From: an uncultured Candidatus Saccharibacteria bacterium | GTDB taxonomy: Bacteria > Patescibacteriota > Minisyncoccia > Phycocordibacterales > DSPV01 | NCBI GenBank assembly: GCA_964617735.1 | Contig: CAZTXT010000001.1 | Coordinates: 138,338 to 202,337 of the forward strand | Reading direction: 5' to 3' | DNA length: 64,000 nucleotides | Shown: piece after piece, positions 10,878 through 64,000 of the stretch | Layout of the letters: each line of letters opens with the position of its first letter | How positions within the stretch are numbered: position 1 is the first letter of the stretch | Notes under the pieces: generated by a model | The model's input: only the letters and a program-made list of their open reading frames with translations | What the model was told of the DNA's origin: nothing | Databases searched by the model: none | Program-made: the position numbers and the translations under genes

Positions 10878-10944
10878 AACGCAGAACCTGTCTTTGATAG
10901 AAGCCGGGCGTCATCAGGTACCTGATGACGCCCGGGCGTAAGGA

Positions 10945-13137
10945 TTATCGATGTCTGAAACCGCCGCTACGGCCGTCCCGTCGATGCGGCGGACGGTGCG
11001 CTCTCTCGTGAGGCGCCCCGTCGCCTGCCCCCGCAGGCCGTTTGAAGAATTCAGAATTCGCGCTTTTTATCGAAAGATTGATGCGCCCTTTCTCATCTAT
11101 TTCACGCACCATCACGGGCACTCGGTCGCCTTCTTTCACAAGATCGGTGACTCGTTCCACTCTCCAGGGCGCCATTTCTGAAATATGCACGAGTCCTTCC
11201 GCGCTGTAGCCTATTTTGACGAAGGCGCCGAAGTCCATGAGCCGGGTAACTTCTCCCTCAAACCGCTCGCCGGGGAGATATTCGCGGGTCATATCGTGGA
11301 CGATATCGCGCGCCGCCTTTGCCGCCCCGTTCTTTCCCGTGATGAATACCGAGCCATCGTCTTCGATGTCGATCTGCGCGCCGGTCTTCTCCATGATGCC
11401 GTTGATGGTCTTACCACCGGTGCCGATGACCATGCCGATCTGATCCGGCTTGATCTTAAGCGAAAGTATTTCGGGGGCCGAAGGGTTCAATTGCGGACGG
11501 TGCGTCGGAATCTCTTTTTCGATGACGTCTAAGATCCGCAGACGCGCGCTTTTTGCTTTCTCGAATGCTTCGGCAAGAATTTTCAGTGTGATGCCCGCGA
11601 CTTTAACATCCATTTGTACCGCCGTGACACCCTCGCGCGTACCTGCGACTTTGAAGTCCATGTCGCCATGATGATCTTCGGGTCCCTGAATGTCCGTGAG
11701 CACTTTATATTTCTCCGGCGACTGCATCATTAATCCTGATGCGATGCCCGCGACTGCTCGCGTGATGGGAACGCCGGCATCAAGAAGTGCGAGCGTCGAG
11801 CCGCAGACCGAGCCCATTGAGGTCGAGCCGTTCGATGCGAACGCTTCCGAGACGATGCGGATCGTGTAGGGAAATTTTTCTTTGGTGGGGAGCACGGGCA
11901 CGAGCGCTTTTTCCGCAAGCGCGCCGTGGCCGATCATACGGCGGTTCATTCCGCCCATGCGACCGGTCTCGCCGGTCGAGAATGGCGGGAAGTTGTAGTG
12001 ATGCATGAATCCTTTTTTGCCCTGCACCTCCATGCCGTCCACGATCATCGAATCGCCCGGTCCACCCAGGGTGAGCACCGAAAGGATGTGCGTGCCGCCG
12101 CGGTAAAAGATTCCGGAGCCGTGCAGTACGGGCGAGACGCCGCCGGCTTGGACGAAGAGCGGCCTGATATCATCCATTCCACGTCCGTCGGGACGGCGGT
12201 TGTTCTCTATCGCTTCCGCGTGCACGAGGTCGTTCAATGCATCTTCGAAATAGGTCGCCGCGAATGACGGATCGATGTCCGGGTGCATTTCTCTGAACGT
12301 CTCCATCCACTCATGATGGATGGGGGTTATCGAGAATTTTCCGGGTTGTCCTGAAAAGACCGACTCCGCGAATTTTGGCGCGATCAGTTTTTTGAAGAGC
12401 GCGGGTACTTCGGGAGGAATCTCGGGAAAGGCCACTTCCTTTTTCGGCTTCCCCACTTCAGCGATGATGGTCTCCTGAAACTTCTGAAGTTTATCAATAA
12501 TAGAGAGTCCTTCCTCAAGCCCCGAGACCAACACATCCTCGCCGACTTCCTTGCTGCCGACCTCGATCATGTTGACGAGGCCGTCTTTGCCGCAAACCAA
12601 GAGGTCTAAATCGGCATCCTCGGCATTGCGATCGCTGTACGAGGGGTTGATGATGAAATTGTTGTCGTCTTTTTTCTTTCCAATGCGCACGGCTCCGACT
12701 GGCCCGTTCCAGGGAATCTCGGAGGTCGCTAACGCAAGCGATGCGGCTATTACCGCGAGCACGTCAGGGTCATCTTCGGCGATCGAGAGCACGGTGATGA
12801 CCACCTGCACCTCGTTGCGCATCCGGCCGTCGAAAAGTGGACGGATTGTGCGGTCTACGATACGGCCCGAGAGAATCGCTTCTTCGGTCGGTCGCCCCTC
12901 GCGCCGGATGAACCGAGAGCCTAAAATCTGCCCGGCAGCGTAAAAGCGCTCTTCATAGTCAACGGTGAGCGGAAACCAATCGCCATCGCGCGTCTGTTTC
13001 GACATTACGGCAGTCGCAAGAACGGTCGTGTTGCCATAGCGGACGATGCATGAACCGGTCGCCTGTTCGGCGAGGTCAGTAAATTGTGCGATCAGAGGTT
13101 TACCTCCAATCTCAATCGAAAACTCTTTTTTAGTCAT
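10945..13137 (-). CDS. pnp: polyribonucleotide nucleotidyltransferase (PNPase)
   Basis: Two RNase PH domains, KH (GKVIGTGGKTI-like) and S1 domains. 730 aa with an RG-rich tail. Confidence 0.95.
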   Translation of the reverse strand: MTKKEFSIEIGGKPLIAQFTDLAEQATGSCIVRYGNTTVLATAVMSKQTRDGDWFPLTVDYEERFYAAGQILGSRFIRREGRPTEEAILSGRIVDRTIRPLFDGRMRNEVQVVITVLSIAEDDPDVLAVIAASLALATSEIPWNGPVGAVRIGKKKDDNNFIINPSYSDRNAEDADLDLLVCGKDGLVNMIEVGSKEVGEDVLVSGLEEGLSIIDKLQKFQETIIAEVGKPKKEVAFPEIPPEVPALFKKLIAPKFAESVFSGQPGKFSITPIHHEWMETFREMHPDIDPSFAATYFEDALNDLVHAEAIENNRRPDGRGMDDIRPLFVQAGGVSPVLHGSGIFYRGGTHILSVLTLGGPGDSMIVDGMEVQGKKGFMHHYNFPPFSTGETGRMGGMNRRMIGHGALAEKALVPVLPTKEKFPYTIRIVSEAFASNGSTSMGSVCGSTLALLDAGVPITRAVAGIASGLMMQSPEKYKVLTDIQGPEDHHGDMDFKVAGTREGVTAVQMDVKVAGITLKILAEAFEKAKSARLRILDVIEKEIPTHRPQLNPSAPEILSLKIKPDQIGMVIGTGGKTINGIMEKTGAQIDIEDDGSVFITGKNGAAKAARDIVHDMTREYLPGERFEGEVTRLMDFGAFVKIGYSAEGLVHISEMAPWRVERVTDLVKEGDRVPVMVREIDEKGRINLSIKSANSEFFKRPAGAGDGAPHERAHRPPHRRDGRSGGFRHR

Positions 13138-13185: not shown

Positions 13186-13306
13186 ACTACCTATCTAAGG
13201 ACCCGCTAATTGATATGCAAAGATGTTAGCATGAAACCCGAAAGTTGACAAATCCTGATATTGATGCAATATACTGTTCAGTTGAACTTCAAAAGAAAGG
13301 AAACTT

Positions 13307-13669
13307 ATGAGTTTTGCTGTTGTGAAAGTCTACGGTACACCTGAGTTCCACAAGAAAAATGTCCGCGTTTTCCTGCAGACACCCATAGATCAATGCATAA
13401 GAAATGTTATGTCGGGATATGTGGAGTCCATGGACGATGCCCAGGGTATCGTTGTGTTATTCATTCCGTCAGTTCAGGTAAATGGAGAGACACGCGAGGT
13501 GCTAATTGAAGCTCATCTTTCTTCCGTAAGACTCTACGAAGATTATGAACATCCGATACGGATGGAACTTTCTAAGTCTATAGCTTCATTGCTCAAGCCA
13601 CACGGGAATTTTGTGGTAACAACTCTAACCTCCCGGATAACAGGCTCTTCCTGTTCTTCAACTCAGTAG
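13307..13669 (+). CDS. hypothetical protein (120 aa) in an AT-rich islet. Good RBS (AAGGA 7 nt upstream of ATG) and an upstream TTGACA box.
   Basis: ORF ends at a bidirectional terminator. Local AT-rich composition contrasts with the flanks. No recognisable domain. Confidence 0.45.
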   Translation: MSFAVVKVYGTPEFHKKNVRVFLQTPIDQCIRNVMSGYVESMDDAQGIVVLFIPSVQVNGETREVLIEAHLSSVRLYEDYEHPIRMELSKSIASLLKPHGNFVVTTLTSRITGSSCSSTQ

Positions 13670-13677
13670 CAATTTCT

Positions 13678-13713
13678 AAAACGGCACCGATTACTCGGTG
13701 CCGTTTTCTTTTT
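13678..13713. terminator. bidirectional rho-independent terminator (ACGGCACCG-attact-CGGTGCCGT, with an A-run on one side and a T-run on the other)
   Basis: Perfect 9-bp stem with T-tracts on both strands, between convergent genes 13307..13669 (+) and 13712..14230 (-). Confidence 0.65.
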
Positions 13714-14230
13714 ACCTGCGTCCGACTCCCAAGAGATATTTACGCGGATTCTCGTCGAGGTCTTGGAAATGATCGGCGGCTTCGATGAGTTTCGCCGAGG
13801 TTGATTTGCCGAATGATACAACTTCCACCTGACAGCCCTGATTCTCCTGAAGGTATTTAACCAAAGGCACGAAATCTCCGTCGCCCGAAATGACGACGAC
13901 GGCGTCGAGTTTAGGTGCGAGCTTTATCGCATCCACCGCGAGCCCGACGTCCCAGTCGGCTTTTTTAGCGCCGCCCGCAAAGACTTGCAGGTCTTTCGTT
14001 TTAGTCTCGATCCCCACTTTCTCCAGTGCCTCGAAAAACCCTTTTTCTTCTCCGCTTTCTGTCGAAATGACATAGGCGACGGCGCGTATGAGATTGCGTC
14101 CCTCAAGCGCGTCTTTGACGACTTGACCAAAGTTAACGCGCGCATGATAGAGGTTTTTTGCGCTGTGGTAGAGATTTTGCGTGTCGATAAAAATGCCCAC
14201 CCGCTGTTCTTTATGTTTGATTACGCTCAT
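13712..14230 (-). CDS. NYN/LabA-like (PIN-related) domain protein
   Basis: N-terminal VGIFIDTQNLYHSAKN and later VVVISGDGDFVPLV are typical of the NYN (DUF88/LabA) fold. 172 aa. Confidence 0.7.
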   Translation of the reverse strand: MSVIKHKEQRVGIFIDTQNLYHSAKNLYHARVNFGQVVKDALEGRNLIRAVAYVISTESGEEKGFFEALEKVGIETKTKDLQVFAGGAKKADWDVGLAVDAIKLAPKLDAVVVISGDGDFVPLVKYLQENQGCQVEVVSFGKSTSAKLIEAADHFQDLDENPRKYLLGVGRR

Positions 14231-14329
14231 GAAAATAAATTTACTTGCTTAATAATACCGTGTTTCTTTAGCAAAACAAAGCTCGCTTTTTAGGAAGCTC
14301 AATCGAGGATCAAATAAGGAGAATGTCTA

Positions 14330-14599
14330 TTACTTCTTCTTCAGTTCAAGTTTGCGGACGATCGTGCCATAGCGGCGCGGATTTTTCTTTTGCAGATACT
14401 GCAAGTGCTTCTGGCGGTTTGCCACCATCGCGAGCAATCCCCTACGAGAGTGCTTGTCCTTGTTGTGTTTCTTAAGGTGAGCCGCGAGCTCTTCGATGCG
14501 TTTTGTCAAAAGAGAAACCTGCACCTCGGGAGAGCCCGTATCCTTATCATGAATGCCGGATTCTTTGATGATTCGCTGTTTCTTGGTCTTTGAAATCAT
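14330..14599 (-). CDS. rpsO: 30S ribosomal protein S15
   Basis: 89 aa. GSPEVQVSLLTKRIEELAAHLKKHNKDKHSRRGLL matches the S15 signature. Confidence 0.9.
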   Translation of the reverse strand: MISKTKKQRIIKESGIHDKDTGSPEVQVSLLTKRIEELAAHLKKHNKDKHSRRGLLAMVANRQKHLQYLQKKNPRRYGTIVRKLELKKK

Positions 14600-14665
14600 G
14601 GTGCATACAGAATAGCACGAAAGCCTGTATTATGCAAGACCTTTTTCAGCATTTTTAGGCAACCC

Positions 14666-15685
14666 ATGTACAGTGGGTGCAGGATACTTTTTGCGATTTG
14701 CTGGTTGCGGTGTCCCTATGCCTGTCGTGTCGCACAATGTTACCATAGCGCTATGGCAAGCGATATCGAGAAGCTCAAACGCCAATTTCTCGAGTATATC
14801 GAGATAGAAAAAGGCCGCGCGTTAAAGACTGTCGAGAATTACGACCGGTATCTCTCTCGTTTCATCGAGTATTCAAAGATAAAAAAGCCTAGCGGTATCA
14901 CTGAAGCTTCAGTGCGCGATTTTCGTCTCTGGCTTAATCGCCAACCCACTCACAACAAGTGGGTCAAGGGCGAAACCTTGAAGAAAAAGACCCAGAATTA
15001 TTATCTGATCGCGCTGCGCGCGTTTCTGAAATTCCTTTCCAAGCGCGGCATCAGCGCGATATCTCCAGAACATATCGAACTTGCGAAAGCTGGTGAGCGC
15101 TCACTTGACTTGATAACAGCCGAAGAACTTGCACGGCTCCTGAACGCTCCGAAGGATGCCGATCTCAAATCACTTCGGGACAAGGCCATTCTCGAGCTTC
15201 TCTTCTCGACCGGCCTGCGCGTATCGGAGCTTTGTTCCCTCACCCGTGACCTCGACCTTTCTGCCGATGAATTCTCGGTACGAGGCAAGGGAGAGAAAGT
15301 GCGAGTGGTATTCCTTTCGTCTCAGGCGAAAGCTGCGCTCAAGCGCTACCTCGCGGCGCGGACCGACGTCGATGATGCACTGTTCGTGAAAGTGAGTTGG
15401 GAGAGGAAGGGTAGAACCAAGGATTTTGCTCTGACCCCTCGCTCTGTAGAGCGTATTGTAAAATATCATGCTAATAAGGCGGGCATCTCGAAAAAAGTCA
15501 CCCCGCATGTCATACGCCATTGTTTCGCGACCGATCTTCTCTCCAACGGCGCGGACCTGCGGTCGGTCCAGGCACTTTTAGGCCATGCCAATATCGGTAC
15601 CACGCAGATCTATACCCACGTAACGGATAAGCATTTACACGAGGTCCACAAAGCCTTTCACGGTCGTGTCAGGAAAAAGGCTTGA
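14666..15685 (+). CDS. xerC: tyrosine site-specific recombinase XerC/XerD family. Probable true start at the ATG at 14753 (MASDIEKLK...).
   Basis: C-terminal catalytic motifs HVIRHCFATDLL and LLGHANIGTTQIYTHV (R-H-R-Y family). N-terminal SAM-like core-binding domain. Confidence 0.85.
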   Translation: MYSGCRILFAICWLRCPYACRVAQCYHSAMASDIEKLKRQFLEYIEIEKGRALKTVENYDRYLSRFIEYSKIKKPSGITEASVRDFRLWLNRQPTHNKWVKGETLKKKTQNYYLIALRAFLKFLSKRGISAISPEHIELAKAGERSLDLITAEELARLLNAPKDADLKSLRDKAILELLFSTGLRVSELCSLTRDLDLSADEFSVRGKGEKVRVVFLSSQAKAALKRYLAARTDVDDALFVKVSWERKGRTKDFALTPRSVERIVKYHANKAGISKKVTPHVIRHCFATDLLSNGADLRSVQALLGHANIGTTQIYTHVTDKHLHEVHKAFHGRVRKKA

Positions 15686-15766
15686 CATATTCCGTATCTG
15701 TACTATAATACTTGTAGGTTTCTCTTAAGACCCGGAACCATCCGGGCGCAACCGTTAGTGTGATCT

Positions 15767-16102
15767 ATGAAAACTAAAACCAGTTCATTGCCGACAATCC
15801 GTATGATGTGGATTGTTCCGAACCCGAACTCACAACTCCCACGGACTGTTACTGAAGCTTCTCTCGAGGAGCTTCATCGTTCATTAGGAGTATTCAAGGC
15901 TTCTCTCTGGATAAGTGGGAAGGCTTCGGGAGGAAAATTCTCCTCCCGGAAATTCCTACCGTATCCTGGCTGCGGTGTTGAAGCCTACAGGGTTTGCTTC
16001 GCTGCAGCGGTGCATGAGAGGGATATCCTCAACATCGTCGAGAAGCACGGTTTTACAAAGTATGTAGAACCTTCCGTTCCTCCACTCCCGGTCGCCGCCT
16101 GA
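15767..16102 (+). CDS. hypothetical protein (111 aa) immediately downstream of the recombinase, followed by a strong terminator
   Basis: ORF with terminator 16118..16155. No recognisable domain. Confidence 0.35.
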   Translation: MKTKTSSLPTIRMMWIVPNPNSQLPRTVTEASLEELHRSLGVFKASLWISGKASGGKFSSRKFLPYPGCGVEAYRVCFAAAVHERDILNIVEKHGFTKYVEPSVPPLPVAA

Positions 16103-16117
16103 AATACGCGCGAAAAA

Positions 16118-16155
16118 GCCCAGTCCGTCAAAGACGGACTGGGCTGATTTTTTTT
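16118..16155 (+). terminator. rho-independent terminator (GCCCAGTCCGTC-aaa-GACGGACTGGGC followed by a T-run)
   Basis: Perfect 12-bp stem followed by 8 T residues. Confidence 0.75.
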
Positions 16156-16181
16156 ATTAAAATCTTTCCGCGTAGTTTGCT

Positions 16182-16967
16182 ATGATAGTGAGCATGAAAC
16201 TTGTCTCATGGAATGTGAATGGAATACGCGCATGCCATCGGAAGGGCTGTTTTAATTGGTTTTTTGAATATCAACCGGATATTTTCTGTCTTCAGGAGAT
16301 CAAATCAGGTATCGATCAGGTGCCAGAAGAGTTGAAAGCTCCTCAAGGATATTTTTCCTACTTTGATAGTCCTAAGGAGAAAAAAGGATATAGCGGTGTC
16401 GCAGTATATTCAAAGACTGAACCTGAAAAGGTTCAATACGGCATCGGTATAAAGGAATTTGACCAAGAAGGTCGTTGCATAGCTTTGAAATTCAAAGATT
16501 TCTGGCTCTACAACGTTTACTTCCCTAACGGCGGCCAGGGACCTCACCGTCTCAAATTCAAGCTAGGATTTTACGACGCATTTCTCAAGCACATCGAGCG
16601 TTTACGCAAAAAAGGTGAAGCAGTGATCTTTTGCGGTGACATCAACACTGCGCATCAAGAAATTGATCTAGCACGGCCGAAAGAAAACGAAAAGAACACC
16701 GGTTTTCTTCCGATCGAACGAGCATGGCTCGATAAAGTCGAGAAGCTTGACTACATTGACACTTTCCGATATTTCTTTCCTGACAAGAAAGGAGTGTATA
16801 CCTATTGGGACCAGAAGACCTTCGCGAGAGAGAGAAATGTAGGATGGCGCCTCGATTATTTCTTTATCACTCCTGATTTACAGGCGCAGCTTAAATCAGC
16901 TCACATTTTTGAAGTGGTTCTCGGTTCAGACCATTGTCCGATAGGGATTGAACTTAGGGATCTATAA
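16182..16967 (+). CDS. xth: exodeoxyribonuclease III (AP endonuclease, EEP family)
   Basis: MKLVSWNVNGIRA, CLQEIK, and the DHCPIGIEL C-terminus. 261 aa. The likely start is the internal MKLVSW at 16194. Confidence 0.9.
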   Translation: MIVSMKLVSWNVNGIRACHRKGCFNWFFEYQPDIFCLQEIKSGIDQVPEELKAPQGYFSYFDSPKEKKGYSGVAVYSKTEPEKVQYGIGIKEFDQEGRCIALKFKDFWLYNVYFPNGGQGPHRLKFKLGFYDAFLKHIERLRKKGEAVIFCGDINTAHQEIDLARPKENEKNTGFLPIERAWLDKVEKLDYIDTFRYFFPDKKGVYTYWDQKTFARERNVGWRLDYFFITPDLQAQLKSAHIFEVVLGSDHCPIGIELRDL

Positions 16968-17212
16968 AGGACATTTATCCACAGAATGTCCTTTACATGT
17001 CCTTTATGAGTCTTATAATGCTAGTCAGGAGTTGACGCAATTCGCTCTCGAAATGCATAAATACTCAAACTGTTCTTTTACAAGAGAGAAGTCACTATCT
17101 CTTTTGCGAAAGATTTGTTCAGAAAGGTGAATACTTTGGGTGTACATATCTCACCCATTCATTTCGGGTATGTGCCCGAGTTTCACATGAAATTTCTGAA
17201 CGGTTCTTTCAT

Positions 17213-17257
17213 ACCGCTCAGAAAGATTTTCCCACTCCTCTTCTGAGCGGTTTTTTT
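17213..17257 (+). terminator. rho-independent terminator (CCGCTCAGAA ... TTCTGAGCGG followed by TTTTTTT) ending a roughly 290-nt AT-rich region downstream of xth
   Basis: 10-bp stem plus a 7-T run on the plus strand. It overlaps the stop codon of the convergent cca gene. Confidence 0.55.
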
Positions 17258-18770
17258 ATTTCACCCAGTATCGATCTCGTATTTTCTTTAGGTTTTTCTC
17301 TTCGGCAGCTTCTTTTTTTGCTTTACCGATGTTGCCGAGATTTTCTAATTTTTTATCGCTCAAAGATGCTAATTCTTTAACCCGGCTTTCAAGCTTCTCG
17401 GCTGTATTGAGCGCCGGATTTTCCATTACATCTTCCAACAAGACGTGCAAAATATGGCCCACCTTAGGTCCCGGTTCGATTTTTGCGATTTCCATTACCT
17501 TCGCCCCGTTGATTTTAAGCATACTTACCGTTATCGGATCATGCATCACCTCTTCCACCATAGACTTGTATTTTCGTAGTCTATACGGATGCTCTTTAGG
17601 CCTTCCTGTTCCAATTCTGTCACAGACGCGCACGTTCATAAGGTCCCATATATTTTCCTTTCCAACGTTCCTCAAAAGTCTGCGGACCGAAGAGAGGGTT
17701 ATCTGATCGGTGTCCGAGAAAAACATATGCCATCGAACCAATGTAACGACTTTTTCAATGGTTTTCACGGGAAACATAAGCTTCGAGAGGATTTTGGCCG
17801 TCATTTTGCTTCCCATGACGTCATGGCCGTGGAAAGTCCAATCTTTTTTTTCCTCTGACCATTTTCGAGCTGGTACTTTCCCTATATCGTGGAAAAGGGC
17901 AGCTAGCCTTACTTCGAGTGACCAGCCATTTTTCGCGGCATGTTGAAGGGTACGAAGTAAATGTTCCCAAACGTCATATGCGTGAGCTTTATTCTGTTTT
18001 ATACCGATAGTTTCAGTAAGTTCAGGGAGAAATATTGTAAGTAAGCCATATTCTTTCAGAAGGATGATTCCATTCATTGGTTGATCGGACATAAGAATCC
18101 GGGCGAATTCGTCCCGTACTCTTTCACGTGAAACTCCTGAAAGATGTTTTGCATTCCTCTTTATTGCTTCTGATGTCTCTTTTTCTATTGAGAAATCAAG
18201 TTCTGTGGAAAGTCTTATTGCTCTCATTATCCTCAAAGCGTCTTCCTTAAATCGCTCATCTGGGTCGCCAACAGCTCGGATAATGCGCATCCGGATGTCG
18301 TCCTGTCCTTTATAAAGGTCAACTATGTGTCCTTTATACCTAGAATGTCCTTTATGCTCGGCGAGCTTTACTGCTATGGCATTTATGGTGAAATCCCTTC
18401 GCTTAAGATCGTCTTCAATGTTGTTGCTGAACGATACCGAGTCGGGGTGTCGCTGATTTGAATATTTTGATTCAAGCCGATATGGGGTTACCTCAACTGT
18501 TTTAGTTGTCTCATCTTCGCTCTCTTCATTGACTACGCCGACTGTTCCATACTCATTTTCATAGAAGGTTTTTGGGAAAATAGATAGTATCTTCTCTGGC
18601 GTTGCGCTTGTCGTTATGTCCCAATCCTTCGGTTTTTTACCGATAAGCATATCCCGGGTGCACCCGCCGATGAGATAGGCCTCAAAACCCTGTTCTTCAA
18701 GGGTTTTAGCGATCTTCGCGACCGCCTCGGGTATGGTGAATAGCTTCTCTTTCATAGTCCCAGTTGGCAA
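17256..18770 (-). CDS. cca: CCA-adding enzyme / tRNA nucleotidyltransferase with a C-terminal HD domain. Probable ATG start at 18755 (MKEKLF...), because the track start is a TTG.
   Basis: FEAYLIGGCTRDMLIG...DWDITT PolyA_pol head domain. HD motif LAALFHDIGK in the C-terminal half. Confidence 0.85.
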   Translation of the reverse strand: MPTGTMKEKLFTIPEAVAKIAKTLEEQGFEAYLIGGCTRDMLIGKKPKDWDITTSATPEKILSIFPKTFYENEYGTVGVVNEESEDETTKTVEVTPYRLESKYSNQRHPDSVSFSNNIEDDLKRRDFTINAIAVKLAEHKGHSRYKGHIVDLYKGQDDIRMRIIRAVGDPDERFKEDALRIMRAIRLSTELDFSIEKETSEAIKRNAKHLSGVSRERVRDEFARILMSDQPMNGIILLKEYGLLTIFLPELTETIGIKQNKAHAYDVWEHLLRTLQHAAKNGWSLEVRLAALFHDIGKVPARKWSEEKKDWTFHGHDVMGSKMTAKILSKLMFPVKTIEKVVTLVRWHMFFSDTDQITLSSVRRLLRNVGKENIWDLMNVRVCDRIGTGRPKEHPYRLRKYKSMVEEVMHDPITVSMLKINGAKVMEIAKIEPGPKVGHILHVLLEDVMENPALNTAEKLESRVKELASLSDKKLENLGNIGKAKKEAAEEKNLKKIRDRYWVK

Positions 18771-18784
18771 AATTTTAGTATATC

Positions 18785-18813
18785 TTTGGCAATTTAGCTA
18801 ATTTTAGCTATGA
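18785..18813 (+). promoter_or_regulatory. promoter candidate for tRNA-Arg (TTGGCA - 17 nt - TATGAT)
   Basis: Hexamers read directly. The -10 ends about 8 nt before the tRNA 5' end. Confidence 0.35.
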
Positions 18814-18821
18814 TTTTTTGA

Positions 18822-18896
18822 TGCTCCCGTGGTGAAATGGATATCACAACAGTCTTCGGAACTGTTGTTCCAGGTTCGAGTCCTGGCGGGAGCACC
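18822..18896 (+). tRNA. tRNA-Arg (anticodon TCG), CCA encoded
   Basis: Manual cloverleaf: acceptor GCTCCCG/CGGGAGC, D-stem GTGA/TCAC, anticodon stem ACAGT/ACTGT with loop CTTCGGA, T-arm CCAGG-TTCGAGT-CCTGG, 3' ACCA. Confidence 0.8.
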
Positions 18897-18947
18897 AGAT
18901 TGGACTTTGCGATGCTCAAAGTAAAGAGAGGATTTCTTTCCTTTGTT

Positions 18948-18975
18948 TTGCAAAGTTATGTTTTGTCCCTATAAT
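18948..18975 (+). promoter_or_regulatory. near-consensus sigma70 promoter for tRNA-Gly (TTGCAA - 16 nt - TATAAT)
   Basis: Hexamers read directly. The -10 ends 19 nt upstream of the tRNA 5' end. Confidence 0.5.
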
Positions 18976-18994
18976 TACAGGGCGATTCGTGAGA

Positions 18995-19065
18995 GCGGGT
19001 ATCGTTTAGTGGTAGGACGGTTCCTTGCCAAGGAACAGGTGGGAGTTCGATTCTCCCTACCCGCA
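18995..19065 (+). tRNA. tRNA-Gly (anticodon GCC)
   Basis: Acceptor GCGGGTA/TACCCGC, anticodon stem GTTCC/GGAAC with loop TTGCCAA, T-arm GGGAG-TTCGATT-CTCCC. No encoded CCA. Confidence 0.8.
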
Positions 19066-19181
19066 TAGGTGTCCTTTAGCTTCAAGAGATCGTTTTGTGC
19101 TTATTTTTAGGGATACATTGAGATCATGTGGATAAGTTTGTGGATATGTGTATAAAGGACAAGAACGATGTCTTTTAGCTT

Positions 19182-19625
19182 GTGGAAATGGATCGGAATA
19201 GTCCGAGACGGGGAGTGTTTCTAAGTAACCTGATTCACGTGGAAAATATCAACCACATCGACGTTGGTAAAAAAGGAGAAGAGATCGCCTGCCGATATCT
19301 CAAGAGCAAAGGGCATCACATTGTCGAACGAAACTTTCGTAAAAAATTCGGAGAGATAGATATCGTCAGTCGAAAAGGAAATAAGGTTTATATTTGTGAA
19401 GTCAAAACATTCGCGTATGATGGTCGAAATGGCGCGGGATCGCATCGGCCGGAAGACAATGTGACGCCATGGAAGTTGAAAAAACTTTCGCGGGTCGTTC
19501 AGATTTATCTGGTAAAAAAGTTCGGTACAGAATTTCCTGAATGGGAATTTTTAGTCGCTTCGGTGGTGTTGGATATGGAAAGGAGGATCGCGAGAATAAA
19601 GATCATCGCTGACGTGCTGGCATAA
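19182..19625 (+). CDS. yraN: YraN/UPF0102 family putative endonuclease. The track start is GTG; the true start is probably further downstream.
   Basis: GEEIACRYLKSKGHHIVERNFR...GEIDIVSRKGNKVYICEVKT matches the YraN (Holliday-junction-resolvase-like) signature. Confidence 0.7.
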   Translation: MEMDRNSPRRGVFLSNLIHVENINHIDVGKKGEEIACRYLKSKGHHIVERNFRKKFGEIDIVSRKGNKVYICEVKTFAYDGRNGAGSHRPEDNVTPWKLKKLSRVVQIYLVKKFGTEFPEWEFLVASVVLDMERRIARIKIIADVLA

Positions 19626-19668
19626 GCTGCACGCAGCGAGGACTATCGATGAGGAGGATTTGTTGCAA

Positions 19669-19739
19669 CGGGCTGTAGTATAGCGGTAGTATATGTGCTT
19701 TGGGAGCATAAGGTCCGGGTTCGACTCCCGGCAGCCCGA
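19669..19739 (+). tRNA. tRNA-Pro (anticodon TGG)
   Basis: Acceptor CGGGCTG/CAGCCCG, D-stem GTAT/GTAT with G-U pairs, anticodon stem TGTGC/GCATA with loop TTTGGGA (G37 typical of Pro), T-arm CCGGG-TTCGACT-CCCGG. Confidence 0.75.
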
Positions 19740-56895: not shown

Positions 56896-57138
56896 TTATA
56901 TAACGCCGGCTTTCTTGAGGGTCGCGTAGGCGCCGTTCTTCTGTATCGTTTTGAGTGCCTTGGTGGAAATAGTGAGTGTTAGGAATTTCTTGAGCTCCGG
57001 CACGTAGATACGCTTTTTCTGCAAATTCGAATACTTCCGGACCATGCCAGTCGGATTGAACTGGGTCGCGCGCGTCCGGTTGCTGTAGCCACCGCCGCGT
57101 ACCGAGCCTTTTTTGAGGATTGGGCAGACTTTTGACAT
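56896..57138 (-). CDS. rpmB: 50S ribosomal protein L28 (start MSKVCPI at 57138)
   Basis: MSKVCPILKKGSVRGG...RTRATQFNPT...KRIYVPEL matches L28. 80 aa. Confidence 0.85.
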   Translation of the reverse strand: MSKVCPILKKGSVRGGGYSNRTRATQFNPTGMVRKYSNLQKKRIYVPELKKFLTLTISTKALKTIQKNGAYATLKKAGVI

Positions 57139-57224
57139 GTGTTTGTTGTGAAAAGTTGTCGGGTAGTGCACCAAAACCAACACAAAGCACTACCCGACGG
57201 TGCATGGACCCAAGGAGGTTTGGG

Positions 57225-57887
57225 ATGCAGGCGCTATGCTATCATAAGAACTCACCTATGCCAAGTACCAGTGCACTCGATGTCATCTTTTCGGTTGCGG
57301 TTTTGATCATGTCCGTTGTGGTGCATGAGGTCTCCCACGGTTATGCTGCATACCTTCAGGGCGATCCCACGGCGCGCCTGCAGGGCAGGCTGACCCTCAA
57401 TCCTCTCAAACACCTCGATCCGATGGGCTCGATCGTTATCCCCCTGGTTTCTTATGCCCTTGGAGGTTTTATCATCGGGTGGGCGAAGCCCGTTCCCTTT
57501 AACCCTTACAACCTGCGCAATCAACGCTGGGGCGAACTTCTCGTCGCGATTGCCGGGCCGATCTCGAATTTCTCCATCGCTCTCGTTTTTGCGCTTCTCA
57601 TCCGACTTTCCGTCGGATACGCGATTTTGCCGCTATCTTTTACCACTATCGCTGCTACGGTCGTTTTGGTGAATTTGATGCTTGCTGTTTTCAATCTGAT
57701 ACCAATCCCACCGCTCGACGGCTCAAAGATCCTCTTTAGCGTGCTCCCACTGCATCTGCGCGGGGTACGCGTATTTCTGGAGCGCTACGCACTCCTCCTC
57801 GCGCTGCTCTTTATTTTGGTCTTCTGGCGTTTTCTGTTCCCGATCGTCCTGTGGCTCTTCGTCCTTTTGACCGGTCTGAATCTCTAG
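57225..57887 (+). CDS. site-2 protease / peptidase M50 family membrane metalloprotease (start at 57225 with AGGAGG 8 nt upstream)
   Basis: HEVSHG HExxH motif inside a TM helix, second ligand region NLIPIPPLDGSK. Multi-TM. 220 aa. Confidence 0.75.
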   Translation: MQALCYHKNSPMPSTSALDVIFSVAVLIMSVVVHEVSHGYAAYLQGDPTARLQGRLTLNPLKHLDPMGSIVIPLVSYALGGFIIGWAKPVPFNPYNLRNQRWGELLVAIAGPISNFSIALVFALLIRLSVGYAILPLSFTTIAATVVLVNLMLAVFNLIPIPPLDGSKILFSVLPLHLRGVRVFLERYALLLALLFILVFWRFLFPIVLWLFVLLTGLNL

Positions 57888-57954
57888 CTTATTTGCCTAT
57901 TCTCCGTATCCCTGCTAATATCTTTTTCTGCTTGTAACTACTGCAAGCGAACGA

Positions 57955-58395
57955 ATGCCGACGATCAATCAACTCATAAAACGAAAACGCCGGAGCCTTG
58001 CGCGCAAACCGAAATCTATCGCATTGCGTCGCAGTTTCAACGTGATCAAAAACCGGCCGAAATTCTTTCCGGCACCTTTCAAGCGCGGCGTTTGCACTAA
58101 AGTGACCACAAAGACGCCCAAAAAACCGAACTCGGCTATCCGCAAGATCGCGCGCGTCCGCTTGACCAATGGCATGGAAGTCACCGCCTACATTCCCGGT
58201 ATCGGCCACAACCTCCAGGAGCACTCGGTAGTTCTTTTGCGCGGCGGTCGCGTTAAGGATGTTGGTCTTCGCTATCAGATCGTCCGTGGCAAGCTCGATG
58301 CGGGAGGCGTTGACGGGCGCAAGAAGGGTCGTAGTCAGTACGGAGCGAAAGCAGGAAAGCGTGCTGCTCAAGCGGCAACCCCGGCATCATCATAG
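57955..58395 (+). CDS. rpsL: 30S ribosomal protein S12 (with an N-terminal roughly 15-aa insertion and a C-terminal extension relative to E. coli)
   Basis: MPTINQL..., [36 protein letters not shown]. 146 aa. Confidence 0.9.
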
Positions 58396-58405
58396 TTAGC
58401 TAGAC

Positions 58406-58873
58406 ATGCGACGCAAACTCAAAAAGAAACCGATCATTGAGCCCGATCTTCTGTACAACTCCGAGCGAGTCTCGAAGTTCGTGAACTATTGTATGGGTAA
58501 GGGAAAGAAGAACACCGCTCGTGAGGTGGTATATGACGCACTCAAGGTGATTAAAGAAAAGACCAAGACCGAGCCGCTCGAAGTTTTTGACGCGGCTCTA
58601 CGCAACACGGCCCCGAATATGGAAGTCCGTTCGCGCCGCGTCGGCGGTGCCAACTACCAAGTTCCCATTGAGGTTCGCCCCGAGCGGCGCTCGGCGCTTT
58701 CAATGAAATGGATCATCGACGCGGCGCGCTCGAAGAAAGGCAAGCCGATGCATATCAAACTCGCCGATGAACTCATCGCCGCCTCAAAGAACGAAGGCGA
58801 GGCGGTCAAGAAACGCGAGAACGTGCACAAGATGGCCGAGGCCAACAAGGCCTTTGCCCACTTTGCTTGGTAG
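58406..58873 (+). CDS. rpsG: 30S ribosomal protein S7
   Basis: 155 aa. ...VRSRRVGGANYQVPIEVRPERR... S7 signature. Confidence 0.9.
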   Translation: MRRKLKKKPIIEPDLLYNSERVSKFVNYCMGKGKKNTAREVVYDALKVIKEKTKTEPLEVFDAALRNTAPNMEVRSRRVGGANYQVPIEVRPERRSALSMKWIIDAARSKKGKPMHIKLADELIAASKNEGEAVKKRENVHKMAEANKAFAHFAW

Positions 58874-58906
58874 CCTGGTGTATATTAGGATTGCAATAAC
58901 CGCCAA

Positions 58907-59419
58907 TTGGCGGTTATTTTATTGTATGTATACTTAAAAGTTATGAAGCACGTTTGGAAAATGTGGCGTCTGATGATTTTTATATCAACACTCCAACCTC
59001 TTTATGCCAGAGCAGGCACAAGGTTCACTGACGAACCGTCTTTAAGGGAGGAAGAAATAATTAGTAGAGCTTTGTTGAGGAGCGGCCAATCAATTGAAGT
59101 CGCGAGACATCACGTAGCCTTGCAGTATTCGAAGAACCGAGATCCCAACAGTATTAATGAAACTCAGGATCTAATTGATGATTGCATTGCCTCAGGGTTT
59201 CTCAATGTCCATGAACTTGAGGGTGTTCGTGATGGAGTTTTTTTATCCATATCGCCTGAAGGCAGGAAATTTTTGAGCTTCTCCTATTTTTTAAGATTTC
59301 TGTTTTCTGAACTGGAAGTCGTCTTTCGTTGGTGGTATACGGTTTTTACTTTCATTCTTGGACTCTTATTTAAGGATCTGTATCAGATAATGATCGCACT
59401 TTTTTCTAAATTATTTTGA
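58907..59419 (+). CDS. hypothetical protein in an AT-rich insertion between rpsG and fusA: putative winged-helix-like region plus C-terminal hydrophobic segments (probable start MKHVWKMW at 58943)
   Basis: AT-rich. Middle region ...[22 protein letters not shown]...[16 protein letters not shown]...[13 protein letters not shown] is wHTH-like. C-terminal FSYFLRFLF...[11 protein letters not shown]-like. Confidence 0.45.
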
Positions 59420-59501
59420 AACAAATCCCTGTCGACTTTGCTTTTCCCGACAAGTTCATGTATTCTACAGAAACGCTTTCAGGCGGATTTTTTATTCTCA
59501 A

Positions 59502-61643
59502 ATGAATCGCGACTATCCATTAGAAAAAGTCAGGAATTTCGGAATTATCGCACATATCGATGCGGGGAAGACCACCACATCTGAGCGTATTCTTTTTTAC
59601 ACAGGTATGACGCACAAGATCGGCGAGGTGCACGAAGGCGACACCGTGACCGACTGGATGGAGCAGGAGCGCGAGCGTGGCATTACCATCACGGCGGCCG
59701 CCATCACCTGCTTCTGGAACCCCACCTACATGGGCTCGGATACTTCGAAAAAGTGCCGATTCAATATCATTGATACTCCGGGACATATCGATTTTACCGT
59801 TGAAGTAAAGCGCTCTTTGCGTGTTCTCGACGGAGCGGTCGTCGTATTCGACGGCGTTGCGGGCGTTGAGCCGCAATCGGAGACGAACTGGCGCTATGCC
59901 GACGAAGGGCAGGTGCCGCGTCTTTGTTTCATCAATAAAATGGACCGCATGGGCGCGTCGTTCGAGAATTCCTACAAGTCCATTTTGGAGCGCCTCAACA
60001 AAAACGCCGTCCGCTTCCAGATGCCGATCGGCCTTGAAGAGCATCACGAAGGCGTTATCGACCTTCTGCGTATGAAGGCCTACCAATTCGAAGGTTCGAT
60101 GGGAGAGCGGGTACTAGAGATTGATATCCCGGCTGATCAGATGGAGGAAGCGAAGAAGTATCATCACGAACTGGTAGAAAAGATCGTCGAGCACGACGAT
60201 GCGCAAATGCACGCGTATCTTGAAGGCAAGGAGATTCCCCTCGAAGAGCTTAAAAAGACCGTGCGCAAAGCAGTGGTCGCGAACAAGATGTTCCCGGTAT
60301 TCACGGGCTCCGCGCTCAAGAACAAGGGCGTCCAGCTGGTGCTTGATGCCGTCGTTGATTATCTTCCCTCGCCGCTTGATATTCCCTCGATAAAAGGTAT
60401 CGATCCGCGGACGGGAGAGCCGCTCGAACGGCATTCTTCGGACAGCGAGCCGTTCTCGGCGCTGGTCTTCAAATTGCAAACCGATCCCTTCGTCGGCCAG
60501 CTCAACTTCTTCCGCGTCTATTCAGGGGCTGTCGAGGCGGGTTCATATGTATACAATGCGACGACGGGGAAGAAAGAGCGGCTCTCCCGCATCGTCCGTT
60601 TGCAGGCCAATCAGCGCGAAGAGGTCAAGAAAGTATTTGCAGGAGAGATCGCGGCGGCTGTTGGCCTCAAAGAAGCGAAAACATCGCATACCCTCTGCGA
60701 CGAGGACAAACCGATCATCCTCGACCCCATCAAGTTTATGGAGCCGGTCATTAGCTTGCGCATCGAGCCGAAAACGAAAGCGGACCAGGAGAAAATGGGC
60801 ATGGCGCTCAAACGCCTCTCTGACGAAGACCCGACATTCCGCATTTCTTCGAACCAGGAAACCGGCGAGACCATCATTTCCGGCATGGGAGAGCTCCATC
60901 TCGAGATCATGGTGGATCGCATGAAGCGCGAATTTTCCGTAGAAGCCAATGTCGGCAAACCGCAGGTAGCCTATAAAGAGACTATCCTCGGTGAAGCGGA
61001 GGCGGAACATAAATACATCAAGCAGACAGGAGGCCGGGGCCAATACGGCCACGTCAAGCTCACCCTGCGCCCCATGAAACCGGTTGAGGAAGGCGCAAAA
61101 ATCCCCAAGAACGTCAAGCGCTATGAGCATTTCGAGTTCATTGATTCGATCAAGGGAGGGGTTATCCCGCAGGAGTTTATTCCGGCTGTCGAAAAAGGCG
61201 TCAAAGAAGCCACCGAGCGCGGTATTTTGGCCGGATTCCCGGTCGTTGATGTCTCCTGTGAACTCACCTTTGGTTCGTACCATGACGTCGACTCATCCGA
61301 GATCGCCTACAAGATCGCGGGCTCACAGGCATTCCAGGACGCAGCCAAGCGCGCGAAGCCGGTGCTTCTCGAACCTATCATGAAAATAGAAGTCGTGGTG
61401 CCCGATAAATTCGTCGGCGATGTAACCGGACACCTGTCTTCCAAGCGTGCGTCCATCGAAGATGTTGGCGAGCGCGGAATGAACAAAGTCGTCTCGGCAA
61501 AAGTGCCGCTGGCGGAGATGTTCGGATACACGACGGCCCTGCGCTCGATGACCGAAGGCCGCGGTTCTTCGACGATGGAGTTCGATCACTACGAAGTGGT
61601 ACCGAAGAATGTGGCGGATGAGATCATTGCCGCGAAGAAATAG
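59502..61643 (+). CDS. fusA: elongation factor G
   Basis: G1 [10 protein letters not shown]3 DTPGHIDF, G4 NKMD, full five-domain length (713 aa). Confidence 0.95.
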
Positions 61644-61781
61644 ACGCTGCCAGCTTCCATAAGGGTAGGGAGGGCGGCGCTCGTCGCCTGTGGATAACTT
61701 TCTTGCATTGAGGTCAAGTCGATTGTACACTTCTTCTTGCAGGTTTCCGACCTGCAAGAAATAAAAGACTTCTCAAAAATG

Positions 61782-61820
61782 GCCGAATGGCACACAAGTG
61801 CCAGTCGGTTTTTTATTTTT
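61782..61820 (+). terminator. rho-independent terminator after fusA (nested hairpin GCCGA-[TGGCAC-acaa-GTGCCA]-TCGG followed by TTTTTT)
   Basis: GC-rich stem-loop followed by a 6-T run. Preceded by a second 9-bp hairpin at 61736..61758. Confidence 0.6.
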
Positions 61821-61858
61821 GAGATGTTTTTTGTTATTAATCGTTAACTATTAATCAC

Positions 61859-62848
61859 ATGGATTTTCTTTTCAAGGATCTTGAGGAAGTTGCAGGAGAC
61901 CTTTCAGCGTCGTTCGACCAAGCGGTCAATGAAGCGGAAACACTCTGCCGGCTCGAGATCAAAGACCGACATCTCGAGGAGTTCGCCGGATCGATGGCGG
62001 TGATGCTTTTAGGATTGTTCTCGGTCGCGGCGTATGGGTTCCCGCCTTCGTACACCTCCTCGTCGGCTGCAGCAGCAGTGATTGAGACACAACTCTCACC
62101 CTCAAGCACTCAAACCGTAGAGGCCTTGGAAGCGAGGATCCACGAGCTTCAAACAAAGATCGCCCAGATCAAGCTCAATGCGAATTCTCTGGAGGCGGCT
62201 CAACATCCTCCCCAAATGGAGAATTCGCTTAAAAAACCCGGATTTGTCTGCCGCACCTTTCATGACGACCTATCGCTTGGCGCTCATGGCGAAGACATCG
62301 CGGCGCTCAATCTGATGCTCGGAAACGGCGGCATCAAGACGGGGACCAGCAGCGACTCCACCTTTAGTGAGGATACTGCTGCCCGCGTCGTCCAATTCCA
62401 GAGAGAGCACGGCATCCGCCAGACGGGTGTCGTAGGCCCGGCCACGCGCGCCAAACTCAATGAATTCGCCGCCTGTGTAACGGAGAGGAGCCATGCTACC
62501 TCGACTCCACCAGGGGCATTCCCCGATTCTGTGAAGAAACCAGAACACCCTGACGGTTACCTCCAGCCCACTTCCTCATCAGCGGTGATGGTGAAGCTCT
62601 ATGCGAAGCCTACCGTTGTGGTCTCTGAAGGAAGTTCGGGCACGGTTACTCTCTATTGGGGGTCTCGGAATGCTACCGTCTGTCACTTCGAAAAGGCCGA
62701 GTTGCCGACATCGGGGAGCATAAAAGTATCGATCACTAAGACTGCTACGTTCACGATATCGTGCACCGGCTCGTCGGGAAGCGCCGTGTCGAACGCGGTA
62801 ACCGTTGGCTTCAAACATGTTGACTCGACGCAATCGGCACCCCAATAA
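61859..62848 (+). CDS. peptidoglycan-binding (PG_binding_1-like) domain protein inserted between fusA and tuf (alternative start at 61994 gives the signal peptide MAVMLLGLFSVAAYG)
   Basis: LGAHGEDIAALNLMLGN...FSEDTAARVVQFQREHGIRQTGVVGPATRAKL matches the PG-binding helical-pair signature. C-terminal Ig-like beta-rich segment. Confidence 0.6.
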   Translation: MDFLFKDLEEVAGDLSASFDQAVNEAETLCRLEIKDRHLEEFAGSMAVMLLGLFSVAAYGFPPSYTSSSAAAAVIETQLSPSSTQTVEALEARIHELQTKIAQIKLNANSLEAAQHPPQMENSLKKPGFVCRTFHDDLSLGAHGEDIAALNLMLGNGGIKTGTSSDSTFSEDTAARVVQFQREHGIRQTGVVGPATRAKLNEFAACVTERSHATSTPPGAFPDSVKKPEHPDGYLQPTSSSAVMVKLYAKPTVVVSEGSSGTVTLYWGSRNATVCHFEKAELPTSGSIKVSITKTATFTISCTGSSGSAVSNAVTVGFKHVDSTQSAPQ

Positions 62849-62927
62849 CCATCAAAAACAAATGAAATGAACGAAACAAAACTTCTCTGTCCACCACAAG
62901 CCTACCTTATGCTTGCGGCTCCGACAG

Positions 62928-62958
62928 CGCAAAAATCCCCCTACTGGGGGATTTTTGC
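62928..62958. terminator. rho-independent terminator (AAAAATCCCCC-tact-GGGGGATTTTT)
   Basis: Perfect 11-bp stem including A/T tracts. Bidirectional geometry. Confidence 0.7.
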
Positions 62959-62975
62959 TTCTCCGCACTTCTATA

Positions 62976-63004
62976 TTGCGTGAAAGCTGACCTTCTGGTA
63001 TCAT
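62976..63004 (+). promoter_or_regulatory. promoter candidate for tuf (TTGCGT - 17 nt - TATCAT), followed by a leader stem-loop GAATTGAGG ... CCTCAATTC (63080..63115)
   Basis: Hexamers and spacing read directly. Confidence 0.4.
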
Positions 63005-63145
63005 CGTTTCTACCGTTTACGCTTTTCCCCGCTTAGGGCGGAGGGTTAAATGTGTTCGCGGAGTTTAGCAGTTGCGTATCCGTGCGAATTGAGGAAAAGT
63101 TTTCGCGCCCTCAATTCACGCTGATACCTAATATTTTTAGAAACC

Positions 63146-64000
<855 letters not shown>

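Follow-up and report, generated by a model that had tools for sequence, protein, structure and literature searches.

The split str cluster of a Paceibacteria genome: variable junctions, a peptidoglycan-binding gene and an AT-rich gene of a rare family

This study concerns the str gene cluster, rpsL-rpsG-fusA-tuf, of a genome which by its sequence is that of a small bacterium of the candidate phyla radiation (CPR), within the Paceibacteria (Parcubacteria/CPR, Candidatus (Ca.) Taylorbacteria-like). The window, i.e. the whole stretch of DNA analysed, comprises 64,000 nucleotides of a 675-kb contig. The four str genes keep their order and strand, and the spacers between them measure 628 bp (rpsG/fusA) and 1502 bp (fusA/tuf) and hold one extra gene each. 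An earlier sequence-only reading had noticed these two non-translation genes and implied that the arrangement was exceptional. Open reading frame (ORF) listing and Pfam bear out the former. The latter does not hold, since a synteny comparison reveals that both junctions are variable in most genomes of the lineage. In this group the str cluster is as a rule split and its cargo variable; the arrangement is real yet fairly ordinary. The explanation that we consider probable is that the str units are separately promoted and terminated and separated by variable spacers, with a gene for a peptidoglycan-binding protein (ORF329) as a resident of the second spacer and an AT-rich gene (ORF170) as a recent acquisition in the first.

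According to this explanation, the cluster would consist of three adjacent units, each with its own promoter and terminator, namely rpsL-rpsG, fusA and tuf, the last running on into the S10 genes. Because each unit would carry its own signals, the spacers would tolerate extra DNA and insertions between the separate transcription units would not be lethal. Both spacers would be hot spots which gain, lose and swap accessory genes across the lineage. The second would long have contained a gene for a surface protein which binds peptidoglycan and is anchored in the membrane; the first would recently have gained some 560 bp of DNA at 38% guanine plus cytosine (GC), with its own promoter and a leaderless gene of 158 aa. 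The product of the latter would be a tail-anchored winged-helix protein of a rare family which otherwise occurs beside IS1595 transposases or in a serine-recombinase island in low-GC, CPR-like contigs.

Gene order, junctions and predicted transcription signals

The cluster comprises the following genes.

57955..58395, plus strand: rpsL (S12, 146 aa); PF00164, E 1.3e-30; M50 peptidase-rpsL-rpsG synteny as in relatives
58406..58873, plus strand: rpsG (S7, 155 aa); PF00177, E 2.2e-59, full length
58907-59419, plus strand: open frame of ORF170, the AT-rich inserted gene; likely gene 58943..59419, 158 aa; no Pfam match
59502..61643, plus strand: fusA (EF-G, 713 aa); Pfam GTP_EFTU, EFG_II, EFG_III, EFG_IV and EFG_C
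61859..62848, plus strand: ORF329, PG_binding_1 protein of 329 aa; PF01471 and hydropathy
63146..64000, plus strand: tuf (EF-Tu), cut by the window end; Pfam GTP_EFTU, E 3.6e-63

For comparison, 80 species-representative loci around fusA were fetched and rpsL, rpsG, fusA and tuf located in each (about 84 relatives overall, cited below by L numbers). EF-G of the window is 88-90% identical to that of Ca. Taylorbacteria/Paceibacterota metagenome-assembled genomes (MAGs) and 60-79% identical to that of other Paceibacteria; its tuf is 89-93% identical to tuf of L090 and L089. The gap between rpsG and fusA amounts to at least 300 bp in 23 of 62 loci and to at least 500 bp in 16, and 11 more loci have no rpsG within 2 kb. 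Gaps of at least 500 bp separate fusA from tuf in 38 of 51 loci (at least 1 kb in 20), with 14 more loci lacking tuf within 3 kb. The ORFs found in these gaps are mostly unrelated to one another, 102 of about 133 being singletons. By Pfam, the cargo of the rpsG-fusA gap includes pseudopilins, ORF6N, reverse transcriptase, PDDEXK and DUF2283. That of the fusA-tuf gap includes PG_binding_1, which is commonest, YafQ/RelB/Phd/ParE and HepT/NTase toxin-antitoxin (TA) pairs, APH and assorted metabolic genes.

The three closest relatives illustrate this variability. L089 (EF-G 90%) has a 1115-bp rpsG-fusA spacer with two hypothetical ORFs and a gene for a 1085-aa PG_binding_1/PKD protein past fusA. 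In L090/L091 (EF-G 89%) the rpsG-fusA spacer is 415 bp long and gene-free, and fusA is followed by tuf after 260 bp. L092/L093 (EF-G 88%) carry a 2510-bp rpsG-fusA spacer with four genes, including a membrane protein and a TA-like pair, and encode a 648-aa protein past fusA. In the relatives tuf is followed by S10 genes. A literature search on str-operon synteny in Patescibacteria returned nothing relevant.

The S10 operon of L090/L091 is interrupted too (9983-13078): rpsJ and rplC are separated by a gene for a surface protein of 873 aa, of Ice_binding/SpaA type. Ribosomal clusters therefore take up cargo at other places than the str junctions as well. A third variable junction lies between the M50 peptidase gene (57120-57887, upstream of rpsL; ORF listing and Pfam) and rpsL. 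It spans 67 bp in the window (57887-57955) and holds an LDcluster4 gene in L089 (3001-3600) and L092 (372-2410), in L092 together with an NAPRTase gene. The rpsL gene itself ends in a Lys/Ala/Gly-rich C-terminal tail (58330-58395) past the Pfam domain, and most relatives align to residue ~132-137 only.

The signals predicted around the two spacers are as follows.

58895..58918, plus strand: predicted rpsG terminator, a perfect 24-nt palindrome AATAACCGCCAATTGGCGGTTATT followed by TTTTATT; -15.7 kcal/mol, z -3.8
58907..58934, plus strand: promoter-like site of ORF170, TTGGCG-16-TATACT; 9/12 in the promoter scan
59438..59501, plus strand: predicted fusA promoter and leader; -35 TTGCTT at 59438-59443, 17-nt spacer, -10 TATTCT at 59461-59466
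61781..61820, plus strand: predicted intrinsic terminator of fusA; 12-bp interrupted stem (61781-61810) followed by TTTTTTATTTTT; -18.2 kcal/mol, z -4.2
62929..62958, both strands: predicted bidirectional terminator past ORF329, GCAAAAATCCCCC-tact-GGGGGATTTTTGC; 13-bp perfect stem, -23.7 kcal/mol, z -6.5
62976..63004, plus strand: promoter-like site of tuf, TTGCGT-17-(TGG)TATCAT with a TGn extended -10; read from the sequence

The palindrome at 58895-58918, an inverted repeat of 100% complementarity which the sequence-only reading had not listed as a terminator, is most likely the intrinsic terminator of rpsG. A terminator hairpin 35-45 nt past rpsG is also present in the relatives L090 and L092. 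The same palindrome overlaps the -35 element of ORF170 and, since its 3' arm holds this element, could double as an operator. Downstream of the -10 of fusA there follow a small hairpin (ACGC...GCG), a U-run TTTTTTATT and the ATG at 59502. This layout is common to L008, L009, L010, L012, L013, L016, L018-L021, L046, L089, L090 and L092, and it persists at any length of the rpsG-fusA spacer from 57 to 2510 bp (at least 14 relatives). The terminators which had been claimed on either side of ORF329 were recovered as the hairpins 61781-61810 and 62929-62958. The promoter claimed for tuf at 62976-63004 is likewise present; it scores 8/12, slightly under the scanner threshold, and hence does not appear in the scanner list. 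The site occupies the same position as the clear promoters which nearly all relatives have ahead of tuf, at a distance of 100-170 nt. From these predicted signals we infer separate transcription of the units.

A small promoter-proximal GC hairpin followed by TTTTTATTT recurs in fusA and tuf leaders; in tuf leaders a hairpin with U-run after the promoter was seen in L024, L025, L026, L027, L029, L036 and L042. It resembles a leader terminator (attenuator) or an A/U-rich translation enhancer, and fusA and tuf lack Shine-Dalgarno sequences in the genomes which carry such leaders. The 3' untranslated region of fusA contains, ahead of the predicted terminator, a strong 12-bp hairpin at 61734-61760 (UCUUGCAGGU...ACCUGCAAGA, -17.4 kcal/mol, z -5.9), which has a T-run on neither strand. 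The cluster region contains no tRNA genes and no Rfam families (Rfam 15, gathering scores; no relevant hit at E<=10 over 58850-63160 either).

The AT-rich gene between rpsG and fusA

The spacer 58874-59501 has a GC content of 0.387 as compared to 0.525 for the window, in agreement with the AT-rich segment described by the sequence-only reading. ORF170 itself, with a GC content of 0.384 and a GC content at third codon positions (GC3) of 0.39, is the lowest among 63 long ORFs (mean 0.523, sd 0.040). Another lower-GC block, with ORFs of 0.43-0.44 GC, lies at 13300-19700 of the window. It encodes an ExoIII-family nuclease, a CCA-adding enzyme and a UPF0102/NERD protein and also holds three tRNA genes (Arg, Gly, Pro) and, at 14666-15685, a gene of normal GC for a XerC/D-like tyrosine recombinase.

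The gene had been taken to start at TTG 58907 and to encode an orphan protein of 170 aa. Its start is almost certainly ATG 58943, which yields 158 aa, because TTG 58907 falls in the palindrome and the alignment of the family begins at the ATG. Neither does the orphan label stand. While a word-indexed homology search returned the query alone, an exhaustive HMMER (phmmer) search of 1.84 billion representatives yielded 12 matches, 10 of them genuine and 2 low-complexity false positives. These ten relatives have 86-182 aa (most 150-180), are 26-32% identical and align along their whole length, and the family shares the invariant residues C81, F86, G107 and F110. By this sequence evidence, ORF170 is a member of a rare but real family. 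ORF170 had no match in PHROGs, PADLOC or Pfam, and 11 family members were without a Pfam hit at E<=0.01. No curated winged helix-turn-helix family (MarR PF01047, PadR PF03551 and others) contains ORF170 by sequence.

Three parts are predicted in the protein: an N-terminal basic amphipathic helix, a winged-helix core at about aa 55-110 and a C-terminal hydrophobic (membrane) helix at about aa 113-157. The alignment-based AlphaFold2 (AF2) model has a recognisable fold (predicted local distance difference test, pLDDT, 79.8), in which a helix-turn-helix is followed by a beta-hairpin wing. The -10 hexamer of ORF170 ends 8 nt before ATG 58943, so that the mRNA would have no leader or almost none. 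All family members examined (L081, L082, L083, L084, L085) have a -10 hexamer, often TGn-extended, 6-8 nt before the ATG. Given this geometry, P0018, P0019 and P0023, for which longer N-termini were called, probably have wrongly annotated starts. In four members the upstream DNA AAAAGGGGnTTTTTGGTAnAAT is kept as well.

These data bear on the alternative that ORF170 is no gene and that the AT-rich segment is a long regulatory spacer, made up of the rpsG terminator and the fusA promoter region, with a chance open frame. In its favour, the segment is AT-rich with a GC3 (0.39) not above the GC content at first positions (GC1) and has no Shine-Dalgarno sequence, the searches of Pfam, PHROGs and PADLOC and the word-indexed search found no relative, and L090 has its gene-free 415-bp spacer at the same site. 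Nevertheless, there are some ten proteins of matching length whose end-to-end alignment shows four invariant residues, the AF2 model is confident, and the promoter-to-ATG geometry is kept in unrelated contigs, which makes this alternative very improbable.

Regarding its origin, the sequence-only reading had proposed that the first insertion is recent, and this view gains support. ORF170 left no trace in L089, L090 and L092 (EF-G 88-90%), nor in ~1 Mb of relatives' str loci, and its distant relatives reside in contigs of 28-42% GC. On the grounds that it has the lowest GC of 63 ORFs and is absent from L089, L090 and L092, ORF170 looks recently acquired and compositionally foreign. Two divergent family members are convergent with IS1595 DDE transposases (L084, 1874-3057; L087, 7527-9879, and L088); the transposases of L084 and L087/L088 are 46% identical. 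The family gene and the transposase of L087 lie together between imperfect inverted repeats, CCCTAACACCACGTATAT / ATGTACGTGGTGTAAAGG. This suggests that the family travels as transposon cargo. Elsewhere, in L085/L086, a member is found in a block following a large serine recombinase, and the member in L083, which belongs to a Paceibacterota MAG, adjoins the gene for RNase Y. PHROG scans of the neighbours of ORF170 relatives (L085, L087) gave marginal spanin or Sie-like matches only (E ~2e-4), which we did not use as evidence of phage origin.

An IS1595-type transposon could once have inserted between rpsG and fusA and then decayed, leaving ORF170 as its surviving passenger gene. The two members convergent with transposases, and the inverted repeats of L087, are what such an origin has in its support: a transposase within terminal inverted repeats is found in L084 and L087/L088. 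The window, however, contains no transposase remnant, inverted repeats or target duplication, and the members in L083 and L085 have no adjoining transposase, so that we regard this history as rather unlikely, if conceivable. The 14-nt direct repeat 58855-58868 / 59430-59443 is not taken for a target-site duplication, since its copies are the conserved C-terminal HFAW codons of rpsG and the conserved -35 region of fusA.

An assembly or binning artefact, i.e. a chimeric join in the MAG, would account for the abrupt GC change at both edges of the segment and for the finding of the protein on one contig only in a CPR assembly of MAG type. Yet the segment is bounded precisely by an rpsG terminator and a fusA promoter of the type usual in the lineage, both of them intact, and the gene is complete with its own promoter. 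Moreover, real insertions occur at the same junction in relatives, and a chimeric insert of 560 bp amid syntenic genes of a 675-kb contig is unlikely. We hold such an artefact to be very improbable.

The product of ORF170 would most likely act as a membrane-tethered DNA-binding regulator or accessory factor from a mobile element, and probably stands outside the translation machinery.

The peptidoglycan-binding gene and the tuf leader

The 329-aa PG_binding_1-like protein reported between fusA and tuf is confirmed by Pfam. PF01471 matches aa 144-200 (nt 62288-62458) with 39.8 bits against a cut-off of 23 (E 5e-10), and the match spans profile positions 2-57 of 57 and lies above the gathering score. 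ORF329 comprises a transmembrane segment or signal anchor at aa 42-60 (hydropathy), a helical linker, the PG_binding_1 domain and a beta-rich C-terminal part. In the AF2 model the three-helix peptidoglycan-binding domain corresponds to helices 145-156, 171-183 and 194-203 (pLDDT 67-82), and for this domain only is the model reliable, the whole being poor (pLDDT 48.5). The N-terminal hydrophobic anchor suggests export, and we read ORF329 as a putative membrane-anchored, cell-wall-binding surface protein. No catalytic domain (NlpC/P60, amidase, lysozyme) was detected in ORF329, its C-terminal part has no family match, and no close full-length homologue was found among 5.8 billion proteins. The window encodes a paralogue of ORF329, a second protein with a peptidoglycan-binding domain (434 aa, 2544-3848; ORF329 profile, E 1e-18).

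ORF329 is 33.5% identical over 182 aa to the 1085-aa protein of L089 and 32.6% identical over 132 aa to the 648-aa protein of L092. The alignment to these genes directly past fusA covers the membrane anchor, the helical linker and the peptidoglycan-binding domain. The relatives begin at the hydrophobic segment, corresponding to Met46 of ORF329, whose start is thus perhaps called too far 5'; by this N-terminal alignment, ATG 61994 (M46) may be the start. The noncoding flanks are kept as well: 61767-61836 is 80% and 62867-62960 75% identical to L089. The terminator region 62923-62960 is 92% identical over 38 nt to the sequence past the L092 homologue and is conserved in L089. A profile search revealed same-strand genes for peptidoglycan-binding proteins downstream of fusA in L014, L020, L022 (two copies), L023, L089 and L092. 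In all, 7 genomes have such a gene after fusA. Because of the homologues directly past fusA in L089/L092, the conserved noncoding flanks and the peptidoglycan-binding genes downstream of fusA elsewhere, ORF329 is, as far as the sequences tell, a positional orthologue ancestral to at least the sub-clade with L089/L092 and no recent insertion. Its composition is ordinary and native (GC 0.555, GC3 0.62). Its variable C-terminal part would have been shortened relative to the 648/1085-aa PG_binding_1/PKD counterparts. The sequence-only reading had named, as evidence against its view, relatives with the same insertions as a lineage-wide arrangement of normal composition; this is what is seen for the PG_binding_1 gene (L089, L092).

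The possibility that both genes are ancient, fixed parts of an extended str operon, co-transcribed and tied to translation (e.g. with ORF170 regulating fusA), can be judged from the two spacers together. Both genes are on the strand of the operon, and a peptidoglycan-binding gene recurs before tuf in several genomes. In addition, the fusA promoter comes directly after ORF170, which has no strong terminator of its own and whose predicted fold is of a DNA-binding type. However, ORF170 is missing from the str loci of all ~84 relatives and is compositionally foreign, strong terminators are predicted on either side of ORF329, tuf of L090/L091 directly follows fusA (260 bp), and the spacer content differs in almost every genome. 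We therefore hold a fixed extended operon to be improbable.

Several points weigh against our explanation of separate units with a resident and a recently acquired gene. The promoters and terminators are all sequence predictions, and the totals of the promoter and terminator scanner are no higher than in shuffled sequence. The leader hairpin of fusA is weak in the window (-5.7 kcal/mol, z -1.2), and there is no clear terminator between ORF170 and fusA, so that read-through into fusA is possible. Neither a target-site duplication, inverted repeats, a remnant of an integrase, transposase or recombinase, nor a tRNA flanks ORF170 in the window. Since low-GC genes of housekeeping type (0.43-0.44) exist in the block 13300-19700, low GC alone is no proof of transfer, and composition alone is a weak transfer marker in this genome. 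'Recent' is relative, as the nearest sampled relative is 90% identical in EF-G, and the informative contexts of the ORF170 family number 5 only. Finally, ORF329 and its counterparts in L089/L092 share the N-terminal half only, orthology being a matter of position and short conserved flanks.

A further predicted element lies in the leader of tuf.

63082..63121, plus strand: tuf-leader hairpin with loop motif UUUUCGCG at 63101-63108; by folding; family consensus (G)UUCUCGYR

This hairpin is also present upstream of tuf in L002, L003, L006, L015, L026, L027, L029, L032, L033, L038, L041, L043 and L060. Its stem sequences are wholly different among genomes, and the apical loop (G)UUCUCGYR is kept. 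Within sequences 9.9 of 11 stem positions pair, against 5.2 of 11 between sequences (12 instances in relatives); as the instances were first chosen by eye, this statistic is ascertainment-biased, and a test for enrichment is independent of that choice. In a descriptor scan of 977 kb on both strands, 8 of 44 hits lay in the 200 nt upstream of tuf, i.e. in 0.5% of the search space (~35-fold enrichment). One further hit was at a contig end where tuf is expected. The same scan of shuffled sequence returned 11-20 hits. RNAalifold on a MAFFT alignment of the hairpins found no structure, as differing loop lengths shift the stems out of register. A covariance model built from 5 instances proved too specific in sequence: besides its seeds it found only one new instance, upstream of tuf in L003, and it missed the other hand-picked instances including that of the window. 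The hairpin has no match in Rfam, even at E<=10, and a survey of ribosomal leaders contains no tuf leader (PMC7247131). We consider the hairpin a candidate new cis-regulatory or protein-binding RNA of Paceibacteria.

Taken jointly, the hairpin and ORF170 might represent two undescribed elements, a Paceibacteria-specific tuf (tuf-S10) leader RNA and a leaderless, tail-anchored winged-helix family on CPR mobile elements, a combination we offer tentatively. The covarying hairpin of ~11-20 bp may be the signature of protein-binding autoregulation, whose likely ligand would be a ribosomal protein or EF-Tu. The copy of the winged-helix gene in the window would have landed directly before the fusA promoter and may read through into, or bind near, an essential translation gene.

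Significance and comparison with known systems

A highly conserved bacterial gene cluster is modular in CPR/Paceibacteria, being apparently split into separately controlled units whose spacers serve as landing pads for accessory genes. Users of str/S10 synteny, be it for binning, extraction of phylogenomic markers or operon prediction in CPR, should allow for split clusters. Fixed flanks with variable cargo provide a simple comparative frame for finding young genes in unculturable organisms. With ORF170, a predicted fold and a genomic lifestyle are assigned to a previously unrecognised family of small proteins. The tuf-leader hairpin, if confirmed, would add a regulatory RNA to a phylum with almost none known.

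PG_binding_1 domains occur in hydrolases, endolysins and CPR surface proteins. ORF329 shares the domain, through which it also matches PHROG endolysin families, and has an N-terminal anchor like its CPR relatives. Unlike the hydrolases it has no detected catalytic domain, and its 329 aa compare to 648 and 1085 aa in the positional orthologues.

From the known winged-helix domains (MarR/PadR/SarA-type, the kleisin C-WHD, TubR) ORF170 differs in that it belongs to none of their families by sequence, and its DNA binding is a prediction. As compared to MarR-type proteins, it is predicted to have a C-terminal transmembrane helix and an N-terminal basic amphipathic helix in place of the dimerisation helices. 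Lambda cI expressed from PRM is an example of a leaderless regulator of a mobile element. ORF170 resembles such regulators in the -10 located 6-8 nt before the ATG and in being a small protein of helix-turn-helix fold tied to mobile elements. It is unlike cI in that it carries a predicted membrane anchor and has no defined operator.

The str spacers are like chromosomal integration hot spots or 'islets' in their conserved flanks and in their genome-specific cargo, which is rich in TA modules and mobile-type genes and has a GC content below that of the flanks. Unlike typical hot spots, they are located inside one of the most conserved gene clusters of bacteria, and they lack an associated integrase, att site or tRNA.

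With the classical str operon (rpsL-rpsG-fusA-tufA in E. coli and most bacteria) the cluster shares the order and orientation of the four genes as well as, in relatives, the S10 genes past tuf. It differs in that two unrelated genes split it, with predicted terminators past rpsG and fusA and separate predicted promoters before fusA and tuf. For streptococci, attenuator-like terminators between rpsG and fusA have been reported (PMC2965389); internal signals within the str cluster are therefore not unprecedented.

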